DNA of 64,000 nucleotides, from IMG/VR virus record IMGVR_UViG_3300007770_000001; one strand, written 5' to 3'. This stretch comes from a virus (Duplodnaviria > Caudoviricetes). Below the pieces are notes generated by a model, which was given only the letters and a program-made list of their open reading frames with translations, was not told the DNA's origin and did no database searches. Positions 48,394 through 54,304 of this stretch are shown here, piece by piece. Within the stretch, counting starts at the first letter, position 1. Every line of letters begins with the position of its first letter. Made by a program: the position numbers and the translations under genes.

Positions 48394-48573
48394 ATGTTGG
48401 TTTCTTCGTGCACGCCAACCTGGACAGAAAGACGGAACCTGAACCTGCTCTCGGAGCGGGAGAGCACCATCTACATCATGGGCCGCATTGCCCGTGGCGA
48501 GGATGTCCCCGCTTCGGTATGGGAGTTCCTGGTCCGGAAGAACCTGATCCAAGGTCCGGTGGCCAACGCCTGA
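48394..48573 (+). CDS. Small hypothetical protein (59 aa) upstream of the release factor
   Basis: GGAGG RBS; MLVSSCTPTW...LIQGPVANA; not in the ORF track. Confidence 0.55.
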   Translation: MLVSSCTPTWTERRNLNLLSERESTIYIMGRIARGEDVPASVWEFLVRKNLIQGPVANA

Positions 48574-48618
48574 CAATCCTGTGTCCTGTGCTGAATCCCC
48601 GTTCAGTTGGAGCATTCT

Positions 48619-49303
48619 ATGTCTCTCATCGTTGAGATCAGGGCTGCGGAAGGAGGAGAGGACGCCAAGCTCCTTGTCCTTCAGCAGTTGTCCGTGTACT
48701 CCAAGTTTGAGGCTCGGGGGTCCCTTTGACTTCACGTTGGAAGTTGTAGCTGAACGACCAGGCTACATTGCACTGAGGGTCACGGGGAAGGACGCACGGA
48801 GAGCCTTCCGCAACGAGGCTGGAGGCCACCGCTGGCAACGGGTTCCCCCGACGGAGAAGCGAGGGAGAGTCCACACGTCCACGATCACCGTGGCGGTGCT
48901 TCGAGAACCCACTCCATCCCAGGTTCGGCTGGATCCCAAGGACCTGGATATCACGACCTGCCGTGGTTCCGGCAAGGGTGGGCAACACAAGAACGTGACG
49001 GACAGCGCTGTCCAGGTCAAACACAAGCCCTCTGGCATCATCGTACGGGCAGAGGCCGAGAGGTCTCAGAACCAGAATAAGGAGCTCGCCCTGGGCGTCC
49101 TTCGGGCCAAGCTCCAGGAAGTCCGTACAGAGGGCGAGAACACCCGTAGAAACGCTCGTAGAAGATCCCAGGTAGGCTGCGGGGCCCGCGGTGACAAGCG
49201 CCGTACAGTACGCCTACAGGCCGGCCAGGTCGTGGACCACATCACCGGGAGGAGGACCTCAGCGAAGTCCTATCTCAGGGGACAGCTGGAGAAGCTGTGG
49301 TAG
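48619..49303 (+). CDS. Class I peptide chain release factor, RF1-like, lacking domain 1, needing a +1 programmed frameshift (about 227 aa)
   Basis: ATG 48619 with GGAG: MSLIVEIRAAEGGEDAK...ARGSL, stop TGA 48727. The +1 frame continues DFTLEVV...EAGGHRWQRVPPTEKRGRVHTS...GSGKGGQHKNVTDSAV...ERSQ-x-QN. Confidence 0.92.
48715..48730 (+). promoter_or_regulatory. RF2-type +1 ribosomal frameshift cassette
   Basis: CGG GGG TCC CTT TGA C versus the canonical prfB AGG GGG TAT CTT TGA C. Confidence 0.9.
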
Positions 49304-49871
49304 GGGGGACAGCGCAGGTCAAGCACGTCTCCACACAGCCAGACTCTCCCTTGAAGAGCTTGGCATCGCAGGACTCAGCCCAGCAGCAGTTCTCCGAGGT
49401 TGGGTCCTGTCCACACGCAGCTTCCCATCCGAGACAGGAGGCCCAGGAGAGGTCAGGACACTGAGCCTCACAGTAAGCCTCGTTGTTCGTCTCCCGCGCG
49501 AGGGGAGGGAGTCCCACATAGCTCTCAGGCAGGAACGTGATGTTCGAGAAGTCCGGACGAGCAGTTCCCGGACTCTCCGCTCCGCCAGGTCCGTCGTTCG
49601 GAGGTCCGGGAGGGGTGCCTGAGCACACGCAGTTGGACTTGCAGTCGGTCTCGCAGTCCCCGTCGCAGAGGACCATGAAGCAGCACGCCGTATGATCTCC
49701 GGCGAGACACGCCACGTGGTAGCCTGCGCAGTCCCAGAACCCCAGGGAATCACACTCAGCTTTGCATCGAGAGTCGAGATTCGAGCAGTCCGGATTCCCA
49801 ACGGAAGGGGTGGCGGGGGCCGGGGGCGCTGAGGCCGTCGTGTAGCACGCCAGGACAAGAGCAAGGATCAT
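49275..49871 (-). CDS. Putative lipoprotein with two Cys-rich repeats
   Basis: MILALVLAC lipobox-like start; two repeats sharing C-x3-C-x7-C-x6-C-x7/8-CC-x4-CD spacing. Confidence 0.7.
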   Translation of the reverse strand: MILALVLACYTTASAPPAPATPSVGNPDCSNLDSRCKAECDSLGFWDCAGYHVACLAGDHTACCFMVLCDGDCETDCKSNCVCSGTPPGPPNDGPGGAESPGTARPDFSNITFLPESYVGLPPLARETNNEAYCEAQCPDLSWASCLGWEAACGQDPTSENCCWAESCDAKLFKGESGCVETCLTCAVPPTTASPAVP

Positions 49872-49902
49872 GAGATACCCCGGAGGTCCAAGATCCACCA
49901 AC

Positions 49903-50364
49903 CTACCCGAGCGGGGCGTTGGCCGCCCAGAGCTTCTCGAACTCTTCCTTGAAGGCCCGGACCACATAGCTGATGCGGATGATGACGAAGTTTTCCGCAT
50001 TCCGCTCGGTGGCGCTCTTGGTGAAGTTGTAGGAACCTGTGAGTACAGCCTTGGGCGCGTTCCGACCGTCTCCGATCAGGAACTTGTTGTGCATGATCCC
50101 CTTCTGGTGATCCCTTCGCACGTCCACACCAGCTGCCTCGAGCTTCTCGTCGTCCGCGTATTTGTTCCCTGCCTGGGTCTTGTCCATAAGCACGCGGACG
50201 ACGACTCCCCGCTGGTGTGCTCGGATGATCGCGTCCGCGATAGGGTCATGGGTCAGCGAGTAGATGGCCACGTCGCAGAAGGTATCACATCCGTCTATGA
50301 ATCCGACCACAACCTCGTCGGCGCCGCGATCTGGGCTGAAGTAAGTGCTGGCGTATCGTCCCAT
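49903..50364 (-). CDS. Phospholipase D family nuclease (Nuc-like, single HKD)
   Basis: VAIYSLT, RGV-x-VRV-x-x-D, MHNKF...TGSYNFT-x-x-A-x-x-x-N-x-EN. Confidence 0.9.
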   Translation of the reverse strand: MGRYASTYFSPDRGADEVVVGFIDGCDTFCDVAIYSLTHDPIADAIIRAHQRGVVVRVLMDKTQAGNKYADDEKLEAAGVDVRRDHQKGIMHNKFLIGDGRNAPKAVLTGSYNFTKSATERNAENFVIIRISYVVRAFKEEFEKLWAANAPLG

Positions 50365-50411
50365 GCGCCCCTCTCTGTATAGCCGAGGTAACTGTGGCAT
50401 AGGAGAAAAAC

Positions 50412-50851
50412 ATGAGGATCCTTTTGGTTCGCCACGGTGAGTCCCTGGCCAACGTCGATCGTTCCGTCTACCTATCCACAGCGGACCATGCCGTGCCCCT
50501 GTCGGACCGCAGGTCACGGACGAGCATATCCAGGACCTCACCGACGGGGTCCGGAAGAAGTTCCGGGATCTTCTGTGCGAGAGGGAGCTCACGGAGTGGC
50601 TCAAGATCTACGAGAAAGATCTCACCCCGGATGAGCGTCTGGTGCAAGGGCACCACTACGTCTACGAGGCCCGGCTCGTAGACGACCAGGCTGTCCTTTG
50701 GGAGGTTGGCTTCGGAAGAGGGCATGTCACTCGGAGGGATTTCATTCGAAAATTCGACTTCGATCCTCTCGAAGTCCTCAAGGAGCGACTCCAGGCCAAG
50801 ACGGACGCCGCGGATGCTCAAGACCTCTTCAAAGAGGTCGGACACCTCTGA
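50412..50851 (+). pseudogene. Histidine phosphatase (phosphoglycerate mutase) 5' fragment joined out of frame to a start-less ORF
   Basis: MRILLVRHGES-x-ANV...D-x-x-VPLS stops resembling the family after about 33 aa. A different frame (open 50441..50851, no start before 50642) encodes a protein-like sequence. Confidence 0.6.
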
Positions 50852-51243: not shown

Positions 51244-51339
51244 ATGGCCCAGATCGCCGACCAGATCGCCACTCGCCTCCTCGCGGCCTCCCGCGCCTAC
51301 TACGGTGGCCGCGAGCCCTGTGGGCTTTCAGGATTCTGA
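51244..51339 (+). pseudogene. Orphaned original 5' end of the DNA ligase
   Basis: MAQIADQIATRLLAASRAYYGG aligns without gaps to [22 protein letters not shown] (11/22 identical). Confidence 0.85.
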
Positions 51340-52272
51340 AGCGTTTTGCGCTTTCCTTCTTGCCCAACGTCTTTTTTGGGATTCGCTCATTTTCCTGCGG
51401 GTCTCGGCGGATGTTACTTTCCCCGTATGGGTTTTCCGGACAGCTTCAGAGACCTTATTCCTGAAGTCTGGATCTTCCCATTGAGATACCATCTTTGCTC
51501 TCGCCGCTTCTCTCCGGGTTCCGTCGTCCTGGGACCACGCTTCCAGAGAGCGTTGTCGAACCCTTTCACGAATCGTATTGCCACCTTTCTCCCACCGTTC
51601 CCGTTGGGCGGTTGACATCTTCTGCCGAGACTCCTCGGAGTGAGTCCGCCCTTCCCAGTATTTGTTGCCTTGGTGTGCCTCGCTGATCTTTCTACGGGTC
51701 TCGGCAGACACGGTTTTCCCTCGGTGGGCTGCTCCAATCTTCTTTTTGGTTTCCGCTGTGTGCTTTTTACCTGTGGCTGCATCTGTTATCCTTCGGAGGG
51801 CGTCTGGGCTATGCACATGACCCCTCATCCGTTCTCTAATCTGCTCCACATGAGATTCTGACAGCTTCCTGCCCGACATCGCTCTGCTAATCTTGGCTCG
51901 GGTCTCCGGAGTGTGGGGAATCCCTATTCGGATTCGGCCCTTGGGGCATATATTGTATCCGGTGGTATGGGGTCTGAGGCGGTCTAACCATTTCTGTTCC
52001 GACTGCTCTACTCCTTCCGGAGAAACCTTTTCGAGGACACTCACTGAGAATGTCTCCTCCCCGTATTTTTCCCAGGCTCGTTGGAGCTTTTGGGAGTGAT
52101 GGGACCCTCTCCTGAGACTCCGGAAATGTCCCATTAGACGAGTCCTGATATTGACAGATCCTCCGACATACACTTTTCCGTTCAGGGTGTTGCTGATCTG
52201 GTAGACTCCCGAGCATTTCCGAGGGTCTCCCCCTACATCCCGTATCGCAGCTTCAATTGTGGGCACGTCCAT
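51328..52272 (-). CDS. GIY-YIG homing endonuclease with NUMOD3-type repeats
   Basis: GVYQI-x-N-x-x-NGKVYVGGS...R-x-x-x-H...F-x-x-x-VLE...EQ...YN; repeated H-T/S-x-ET-R/K-x-KIS-x-A motifs. Confidence 0.93.
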   Translation of the reverse strand: MDVPTIEAAIRDVGGDPRKCSGVYQISNTLNGKVYVGGSVNIRTRLMGHFRSLRRGSHHSQKLQRAWEKYGEETFSVSVLEKVSPEGVEQSEQKWLDRLRPHTTGYNICPKGRIRIGIPHTPETRAKISRAMSGRKLSESHVEQIRERMRGHVHSPDALRRITDAATGKKHTAETKKKIGAAHRGKTVSAETRRKISEAHQGNKYWEGRTHSEESRQKMSTAQRERWEKGGNTIRERVRQRSLEAWSQDDGTRREAARAKMVSQWEDPDFRNKVSEAVRKTHTGKVTSAETRRKMSESQKRRWARRKAQNASES

Positions 52273-52308: not shown

Positions 52309-53455
<1,147 letters not shown>

Positions 53456-53457
<2 letters not shown>

Positions 53458-53485: not shown

Positions 53486-53509
53486 AGTCTTGAGGAAGGA
53501 GTGACCAAC

Positions 53510-54304
53510 ATGTTCCAGGTGCCCACCAACTGCCCCTCCTGTGGTTTCGAGCTCGAGATGGACGGAGGATACCTGAAGTGCTGCGGGCCCACGTGCCCGG
53601 CGCAGGTAGTCGGTTCCCTCAACCGGTGGGTGGGGAAGCTCCGCATCCTCAACATCGGGAACGCTCTGATCCAGGCCCTGGTCGATGCCGGGCGTGTGTC
53701 GGATATCTCTGGCCTGTACAGGCTGGAAGAGTCCTGGCTGCGCGAGTTCGAGATCGATGGCCGCAAGGTGGGCGGAAACGCCCGGCGCGTGGTGGCCTCC
53801 CTGAACGCAGCGCGGGATATCCCCGTCGACATGTTCGTGGGGAGCCTCGGGATTCCTCTCTGCGGCCGCAAGATGGTCAGCATCCTGGTCGACGCCGGCT
53901 ACGACGACCTCAGCAAGCTCGCCAAGGTCACGACTGCTCAGATGGAAGCGGTCCCCGGGTTCGGCGCCGAGCGCGCTCGTAGCTTCCGTGCCGGCTTCGA
54001 TGCATGCCGCTCTCTGATGCTCCAGATCATGGCCTCCGGAGTCGACGTGATCGCTCCGGTCCGCGCGGTGGCTACCGGAGATGCGATGGCCGGCCAGGCC
54101 GTGTGCTTCACGGGTGTCCGTGACAAGGAGGCTTCCGCGGCCATCGTGGATCAGGGCGGCAAGATCGCCAGCGGCGTGTCCAAGAACACCACCCTGTTGG
54201 TCGCGAAGAACCCCGCCTCCACCAGCGGCAAGGCCAAGAAGGCTCGCGCCCTGGGTATCGAGATCATCAGCCAGGCCGAGATGCGGTCCCGGCTCGGCCT
54301 CTGA
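53510..54304 (+). CDS. ligA: NAD-dependent DNA ligase, C-terminal part (Zn finger, HhH, BRCT)
   Basis: P-x-x-CPSCG...C-x-x-x-x-CPAQ, I-x-x-IG-x-x-x-x-x-x-LV, SLGIP-x-x-G, VPGFG, and BRCT VCFTG...GG-x-x-x-SGVSK-x-T-x-x-LV...K-x-x-KA-x-x-LGI-x-II. Confidence 0.93.
   Translation: MFQVPTNCPSCGFELEMDGGYLKCCGPTCPAQVVGSLNRWVGKLRILNIGNALIQALVDAGRVSDISGLYRLEESWLREFEIDGRKVGGNARRVVASLNAARDIPVDMFVGSLGIPLCGRKMVSILVDAGYDDLSKLAKVTTAQMEAVPGFGAERARSFRAGFDACRSLMLQIMASGVDVIAPVRAVATGDAMAGQAVCFTGVRDKEASAAIVDQGGKIASGVSKNTTLLVAKNPASTSGKAKKARALGIEIISQAEMRSRLGL

Follow-up and report, generated by a model that had tools for sequence, protein, structure and literature searches.

A candidate prfB-type +1 frameshift site in the gene of a short, RF1-like release factor from large phages and bacteria

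Programmed +1 frameshifting at a Shine-Dalgarno (SD)-like element followed by CUU-UGA-C has, to our knowledge, been tied so far to a single gene, prfB. The same arrangement of bases occurs in a gene at positions 48619–49303 (+) of a 64,000-nucleotide (nt) stretch of DNA from a virus of the Caudoviricetes (IMG/VR record IMGVR_UViG_3300007770_000001), the whole of which is called the window here; the product of this gene, however, is a short release factor (RF) of the RF1 type. Two questions are raised by the locus: whether the gene is read by a change of frame, and what a UGA-gated UAA/UAG factor would sense. Comparison with relatives makes it probable that a prfB-type programmed +1 frameshift operates here in a different, RF1-like paralogue, at a site not homologous to that of prfB. 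The window appears to derive from a marine jumbo phage whose RF1-like factor lacks domain 1 and carries a conserved +1 frameshift of this kind. The recoding is of a textbook kind; a cassette in an RF1-like paralogue is undescribed in the literature searched, and full-text searches found no published description of the short-RF family.

A release factor gene in two frames

A ribosome-binding site, GGAG (48609–48612, +; direct sequence reading), lies 6 nt 5′ of the ATG (48619–48621) that opens frame 0. The frame-0 part comprises 36 codons (48619–48726, +; MSLIVEIRAAEGGEDAKLLVLQQLSVYSKFEARGSL), covers the first strand and helix alpha-5 of RF domain 2, and gives the peptide MSLIVEIRAAEGG...ARGSL, ending with CTT at 48724–48726 and followed by TGA at 48727–48729. 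Within it, the codons for AAEGG (48643–48657, +) specify the tip preceding helix alpha-5; alignment by way of the homologue L015 sets this tip opposite T. maritima RF1 PGTGG. The rest of domain 2 and domains 3 and 4 are found in the +1 frame (48728–49303, +), as 191 codons (48728–49300) and a TAG stop (49301–49303), reading DFTLEVV...WQRVPPTEKRGRVHTS...GSGKGGQHKN. The fused frameshift product would have 227 residues, with the RF1-type PxT ‘tripeptide anticodon’ PPT (CCC CCG ACG, 48845–48853, +) at residues 76–78 and the peptidyl-tRNA hydrolysis motif GGQ (GGT GGG CAA, 48977–48985, +) at residues 120–122; the peptide predicted across the gate is GSLDFTLEVVAER.

The junction reads CGG GGG TCC CTT TGA C. 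An internal SD-like GGGGG (48716–48720, +) stands 3 nt (TCC) 5′ of CTT (48724–48726, +), the predicted P-site slippery codon (CUU to UUU re-pairing), which is invariant in 78/78 distinct frameshift contexts; the TGA gate codon and the C after it (48727–48730, +) form a weak stop context, and the skipped base would be T 48727. The arrangement GGGGG-TCC-CTT-TGA-C (48716–48730) thus has a stop directly after CUU with the homologous protein resuming in the +1 frame, an SD-like stimulator at 3-nt spacing, and C after the stop, as in the prfB cassette (SD-like element, 3-nt spacer, CUU-UGA-C) described in the work that PMC3711429 cites on this point (Craigen and Caskey 1986; Baranov et al. 2002). 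In the 64 kb the pattern GGRGG-N3-CTTTGAC has a single occurrence, at the gate, against a chance expectation of 0.03. Downstream RNA structure was not predicted at the gate (z 0.44), and none is known for prfB. Around the gene neither a sigma-70-like promoter nor an intrinsic terminator was found, and blastn against the phage collection gave no match.

Both parts of the gene match release factors. Pfam placed the frame-0 peptide on PCRF positions 101–131 (E 1.6e-3), and the +1 part on the last 42 positions of PCRF (153–194) and on the RF-1 domain (E 1.3e-27); domain-1 sequence was found neither in the gene nor in the four upstream open reading frames (ORFs). Since both halves match one RF fold and nothing upstream encodes domain 1, the product is predicted to consist of RF1-type domains 2–4. 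The uninterrupted relative L015 aligns over its full length to T. maritima RF1 residues 88–300 (E 2e-46 in a PDB search), compared with ~1e-31 for RF2 and 2e-11 for PrfH. NCBIfam models ranked prfA above prfB, PrfH and ArfB, all four under their cut-offs: the prfA models scored 182 and 177 bits (cut-offs 400 and 423), the PrfH model TIGR03072 80 bits (cut-off 167), and the ArfB model 35 bits (cut-off 100) in a match limited to residues 64–99. In an AlphaFold model of the uninterrupted homologue P0016 (14-sequence alignment, predicted local distance difference test 79) a strand at 4–12 is followed by a helix at 17–36, with the gate at the helix end; Foldseek with this model returned RF1 first (E 1e-21, 40–42% identity) and gave template modelling scores of 0.76–0.85 to free or pre-accommodated compact RF1 and RF2. 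The RF1 decoding loop QRVP-x-TE..GR-HTS, with PxT, is present (WQRVPPTEKRGRVHTS) and invariant in the family. The four-domain architecture and the equivalog score of RF1 are lacking, the protein's first residue corresponding, by the alignment of the homologue, to residue 88 of T. maritima RF1, and the gene is best classed as an RF1-like paralogue, not prfA. A first-pass annotation, made from the letters alone, had already described the two reading frames, the GGGGG 3 nt before CTT and the junction peptide GSLDFTLEVVAER, all of which were recovered on re-reading; its further proposals, of an RF1-type factor without domain 1, of AAEGG in place of the RF1 form at the alpha-5 tip, and of a cassette away from the prfB-orthologous position, agree with the order RF1 > RF2 > PrfH in the PDB and NCBIfam searches and the presence of PPT and GGQ, with the alignment through L015, and with the gate at the alpha-5 end in the P0016 model, respectively.

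Two other identities were rejected: PrfH (RFH), given the weak TIGR03072 score and the lack of an rtcB-like Pfam family in the upstream ORFs, and an ArfB-type rescue hydrolase, given that domains 2 and 4 with PPT are present beyond the GGQ domain. Domain 1 is the part of a release factor that faces RF3 and L11, and its loss plausibly brings a putative uncoupling from RF3. RF1 truncated of domain 1 is reportedly active in peptide release in vitro and functional in vivo (PMC1586002).

A single extra T, whether an assembly error or a one-base insertion that broke an ordinary short RF gene, would give the same picture in one sequence, and the uninterrupted locus L083 does differ from its gated sister L081 in this manner (CTG-GAG vs CTT-T-GAC). 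The stretch is present in 6 public runs of two marine/seawater studies, and contigs assembled separately from 4 of the runs, from both studies, showed 0 differences and 0 gaps against 48500–49400, at word depths of 10–38 and with some runs possibly the window's own source; this speaks against the artefact that the first-pass annotation had named as a hazard. Because some runs may be the window's own source, the comparative argument makes the stronger case: the same CTT-stop junction recurs in 101 diverged loci, and the pattern is hardly expected by chance. A pseudogene or assembly error is therefore scarcely credible. Transcriptional slippage was also rejected, the site having three T's only and no homopolymer run. 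Selenocysteine was considered for the relatives with in-frame TGA, and nothing in them hinted at it.

The window itself is phage DNA, as the first-pass annotation had taken it to be, in the standard genetic code and with RIIA, a baseplate wedge protein, DNA polymerase and helicases among its annotated genes. Its G+C content is ~60%, it holds no tRNA genes, and stops in ~83 ORFs are TGA 55, TAG 21 and TAA 7, TAG not being clearly enriched. Databases link the release-factor protein to contigs of up to 228 kb.

The gate among relatives

The gene was rebuilt in 143 loci (75 viral, 67 from bacterial genome bins and isolates, and the window). A +1 shift at CTT-stop was found in 101/143 (70 TGA, 30 TAG, 1 TAA); 34/143 have in-frame TGA, once or twice, in place of a shift, and 4/143 are uninterrupted family members; 3/143 were RF2-like outgroups and 1/143 was unresolved. 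A stop gate is thus kept in 135/139 resolved family loci. The CTT-stop loci, on contigs of viruses and cells whose G+C spans 21–75%, diverge down to ~40% identity. The motif that the first-pass annotation wished to see conserved in homologues is indeed kept. Across 78 distinct frameshift contexts the consensus is C-G-G-(A/G)-G-G-N3-CTT-T(G/A)(A/G)-C: an SD-like element precedes CTT by 3 nt in 53/78 and by 4 nt in 10/78 distinct sites, being absent from 13/78, and C follows the stop in 60/78, with TGA-C in 40/78. The uninterrupted relatives examined have no CTT-T-stop junction.

Should there be no recoding at all, the product would start inside the +1 frame (at TTG 48707 or GTG 48581), without the first strand and helix alpha-5. 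Gene callers do annotate the locus so, as the 198-residue P0003 from TTG 48707 or as a 240-codon GTG ORF, and in the window the +1 frame is open back to 48581. The frame-0 peptide, however, is conserved as protein in ~100 homologues, which begin at an equivalent M-x-x-I-V-E-I-R, and corresponds to the alpha-5 tip region of release factors; a motif like E-[ILV]-R-A-A-E-GG occurs in 99/125 family proteins, and uninterrupted relatives code the same N-terminus in one frame. Third-position variability also changes phase: taken over 70 distinct site-1 sequences, the mean entropy of columns at the three codon positions is 0.81/0.68/1.42 in frame 0 before the gate and 1.32/1.15/1.71 in frame +1 after it, the peak moving by +1 exactly at the gate. 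Moreover, 26/73 loci have the +1 frame closed in the 90 nt before the gate. The phase switch and the upstream closure exclude an internal start as a general explanation; for the window we consider such a start very improbable, and just as improbable the corollary that the frame-0 ORF is a separate small gene or noise. An independent sample of database gene calls (the 120 best) lacked the N-terminal EIRAAEGG motif in 108 cases, implying that most database entries of the short-RF family are N-terminally truncated.

In a maximum-likelihood tree, 78 rows form a clade (Shimodaira–Hasegawa-like approximate likelihood ratio test 97) with the gate at approximately codons 33–40, the position seen in the window, which groups inside this clade with L001 and L002. 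The family as a whole has three codon positions for the +1 shift, ~33–40, 46 and ~53. A basal clade has, at codon 46, either CTT-TGA-C with an SD-like element or an in-frame TGA; its cellular representatives are from Thiobacillus, Achromobacter, Variovorax, Novimethylophilus, a Cupriavidus plasmid and uncultured bins. An A+T-rich clade has two in-frame TGAs, and on two separate branches of it the frameshift lies at ~codon 53 as CTT-TAG-CGG, lacking an SD-like element. The tree requires at least 13 changes of gate type and, among the frameshift genes, at least 14 of gate codon; in-frame gates are TGA only. The constant feature of the family is an early stop codon rather than any one mechanism, the window showing the commonest variant; on these sequences, the case singled out by the first-pass annotation appears as one instance of a family-wide rule.

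Individual loci illustrate these arrangements. The codon-46 frameshift is seen in L126, L129, L131, L132 and L133, of the basal, partly betaproteobacterial clade, and the ~codon-53 frameshift in L057, L060, L062, L064, L065 and L075. In the A+T-rich clade alignment, ATC-TGA-CTA of in-frame relatives stands opposite CTA-TGT-CTT-TAG. At L007:2692-6126, a G+C-rich locus, an in-frame CTA-TGA-CTG occupies the window's gate position, inside an eight-tRNA array.

The cassette thus recurs at three non-homologous positions, with TGA, TAG or TAA, and interconverts with in-frame UGA, offering a natural experiment on how such a switch originates. As the Arg-Arg-Gly-Leu codons are already SD-like and followed by CTT, a one-base insertion could suffice to create the site.

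What the gate might sense

By analogy with prfB, ribosomes would start at ATG 48619, translate 36 codons, and stall while the P site holds peptidyl-tRNA-Leu on CUU and the A site a poorly terminated UGA-C. GGGGG, 3 nt upstream, would pair with the anti-SD of 16S rRNA, and the tRNA would re-pair on UUU, so that GAC is read next (...ARGSL-DFTLEVV...); a release factor arriving first at the UGA would leave the 36-residue peptide only. As slippage competes with termination at UGA, the yield of the factor would be set by that competition, and UGA termination in the infected cell would be performed by host RF2. The anatomy, the requirement for a +1 shift, its conservation and the switch of coding phase are read from the sequences; frameshifting itself and its efficiency, release at UAA/UAG and a role of the gate as a regulatory sensor are inferred.

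Factors with PxT recognise UAA and UAG, and the alpha-5 tip region of an RF is needed for reading the first stop-codon base. VPPTE is found in 123/125 proteins, the two exceptions being RF2-like outgroup proteins with SPF, and GGQ in 125/125; the sole column separating TGA-gated from TAG-gated proteins is the shift-site residue itself (Asp/Glu vs Ser). If the PxT of the short RF likewise reads UAA/UAG, TAG and TAA gates would be sensed by the factor itself and the TGA gate of the window would sense host RF2; in cells whose own prfB has the cassette, levels of the short factor would track RF2 synthesis. Cross-regulation by host RF2 at the window's UGA gate is a reading we hold tentatively, with slightly less than even confidence.

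Several observations weigh against a regulated, prfB-like frameshift. The gate codon is labile while the decoding residues are unchanged, and given at least 14 flips of the gate codon with invariant decoding motifs, a UGA gate might be an RF2 sensor, part of a feedback loop, or a plain attenuator; on the sequences compared, these flips seem to complicate the sensor and the closed-loop readings alike. A PxT factor is not expected to read UGA, leaving the self-codon logic of prfB incomplete. No copy of the stretch was found in RNA runs among the public runs that contain it. The SD-likeness could partly stem from Arg and Gly codons, although Nannocystis keeps GGGAG while coding R-E-H, which counters such an origin. 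In some bacteria, such as M. smegmatis, the canonical motif gives poor frameshifting (PMC12421855), a possible caveat for the host of this phage. Finally, 4 family loci and ~10% of database relatives are without any gate, so gating is dispensable.

The last point also suits a fixed attenuator, in which the premature stop would lower and fix the yield of a possibly harmful factor while carrying no release-factor information, as do the 13/78 sites without an SD-like element. Gate codon frequencies, TAA avoidance aside, resemble the ordinary stop usage of neighbouring genes (TGA 81, TAG 26, TAA 10 at G+C-rich frameshift loci) and would also fit such a non-specific device. A weak ribosome-binding site would be a simpler route to low yield, and yet 135/139 loci keep the gate through the many changes of mechanism. 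Studies of prfB further indicate that competition between termination and slippage is inherent in the mechanism, which makes yield at least partly dependent on the cognate release factor. We regard a fixed attenuator as somewhat unlikely.

The short RF might instead be omnipotent, reading UGA as well as UAA and UAG, in which case every gate variant would be direct negative feedback as in prfB. Repeated gate-codon change without compensating change in the protein is what would be expected were all stops equivalent, and the family differs from RF1 in all codon-reading elements (AAEGG for GTGG, HRW-QRV, PPT). Structures and tripeptide swaps ascribe the rejection of G at position 2 by RF1 to the Pro (first) and Thr (third) of PxT and to Gln and Thr of QRVP..HTS; these determinants are all present in the family, and the restriction of in-frame gates to TGA also speaks against equivalence of the stops. 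Other release-factor genes described as autoregulated do use stops in their own mRNA, namely prfB, the giant-virus factor (PMC3521657) and plant eRF1 (PMC5397192). On balance an omnipotent factor is unlikely; were it true, a self-limiting universal terminator, independent of RF3 and gated by CUU-UGA, CUU-UAG, CUU-UAA or in-frame UGA, would exist in phages and myxobacteria. The reading that we prefer remains a prfB-type frameshift in a UAA/UAG factor, and it raises the question of what such a factor senses through UGA.

Known systems, carriers and neighbours

With prfB the short RF shares an identical cassette (G-rich SD-like element, 3-nt spacer, CTT, TGA, C) and a +1 shift into the frame coding the rest of a class-I release factor. 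The prfB site lies at ~codon 26, within domain 1, whereas that of the short RF is at codon 36–37, where helix alpha-5 of domain 2 ends, in a protein with PxT rather than SPF and no domain 1. The short RF, unlike RF2, is not expected to read its own gate UGA, and its relatives also use TAG (30 loci), in-frame TGA and two other positions; a 2025 survey did not detect a TAG gate in prfB (PMC12421855). The short-RF site, placed on the structural model, would work like the prfB site without being the same site. RF1 (prfA) is the best sequence and fold match, with GGQ, the decoding loop and the order of domains 2–4 in common, but the short RF has 227 residues vs 342–371 in full-length PDB chains, is in cellular carriers an extra copy beside full RF1/RF2, and is stop-gated. 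No programmed frameshift in prfA was found in the 12,753 genomes of the 2025 survey (PMC12421855). A 2016 review of frameshifting denied that any RF2 gene stays in one frame past an early in-frame UGA, listed an early-UAG counterpart in RF1 genes as unknown, and cited a giant-virus factor as the only viral case (PMC5009743).

That giant-virus case is the class-I release factor of Mimivirus and Megavirus, whose synthesis calls for a readthrough and a frameshift (Jeudy et al. 2012, PMC3521657), read by its authors as bacterial-style autoregulation. Like the short RF, it is virus-encoded and bypasses internal stops of its own mRNA by recoding; unlike it, it is of the eukaryotic/archaeal eRF1 type, belongs to amoebal viruses and has both recodings in one gene, whereas the short RF is a bacterial RF1 type in phages and myxobacteria with the canonical bacterial signal. 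PrfH resembles the short RF in lacking domain 1, keeping GGQ and being an accessory paralogue. It is paired with RtcB2, differs from RF1/RF2 at residues facing mRNA and the decoding centre, and has its gene always behind a conserved upstream gene, according to Baranov et al. 2006 (PMC1586002); the short RF, in contrast, keeps the RF1 decoding loop, is stop-gated, and has no RtcB family, by Pfam, among the neighbours scanned. A preprint on phage recoding lists phage RF1/RF2 genes and mentions no frameshift.

Most of the related phage loci scanned (24/37) have tRNA genes around or close to the short-RF gene, a proximity that would assign this gene to the translation toolkit of large phages, in which it is likely an auxiliary terminator. 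Large phages would accordingly possess an undescribed accessory termination factor, its gene often among tRNA genes. A+T-rich relatives (L036-L062, L112) have two tRNA-Met genes upstream, and a CTA-anticodon tRNA and tRNA-Cys(GCA) downstream, and several A+T-rich loci add a phage transfer-messenger RNA, for example L053:624-978. In that locus, L053:4539-4611 is the tRNA with anticodon CTA (amber-suppressor-like) and L053:6287-6358 the tRNA-Cys. An RF1-type factor beside an amber suppressor is paradoxical, and may represent a timed switch. Genes for tRNA-Trp(CCA) at L068:1511-1587 and L071:4840-4913 lie beside or near short-RF genes with a single in-frame TGA, of which this tRNA could be the reader.

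Cellular carriers also hold full-length RF1 and RF2. In six Nannocystis species the short-RF gene sits in conserved chromosomal synteny, with unremarkable chromosomal neighbours that include ClpS and a FemAB-like gene. Both Nannocystis exedens (L143; cggaggcat-CTT-TGA-cta) and Thiobacillus denitrificans (L148; agggggttt-CTT-TGA-cta) have the canonical cassette in their own prfB, so that one genome holds two genes with the same cassette. Cultivable carriers are available in Nannocystis, Minicystis, Thiobacillus denitrificans and Achromobacter.

Analysis of neighbours brought out no functional partner of the short-RF gene, those in the window being uninformative. The sole family to recur near the gene, within 3 kb in 19 loci, was that of GIY-YIG relatives; the window has a homologue of the GIY-YIG ‘group I intron endonuclease’ (TIGR01453, E 3e-36) at 51328–52272 (−). 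This homing endonuclease is probably a mobile hitch-hiker rather than a functional partner. A Cys-rich ORF of 241 codons (49275–50000, −) runs towards the release-factor gene and shares that gene's last 29 bases, adjoined by a PLD-like protein (PF13091, E 9e-26; 49903–50604, −). Further along, an NAD-dependent DNA ligase is split in two genes, the first (52327–53457, +) with the adenylation and OB domains and the second (53501–54304, +) with Zn-finger-like CPSCG, HhH and BRCT parts; this second gene has a GAGGAAGGAG ribosome-binding site of its own, and its ATG stands at 53510.

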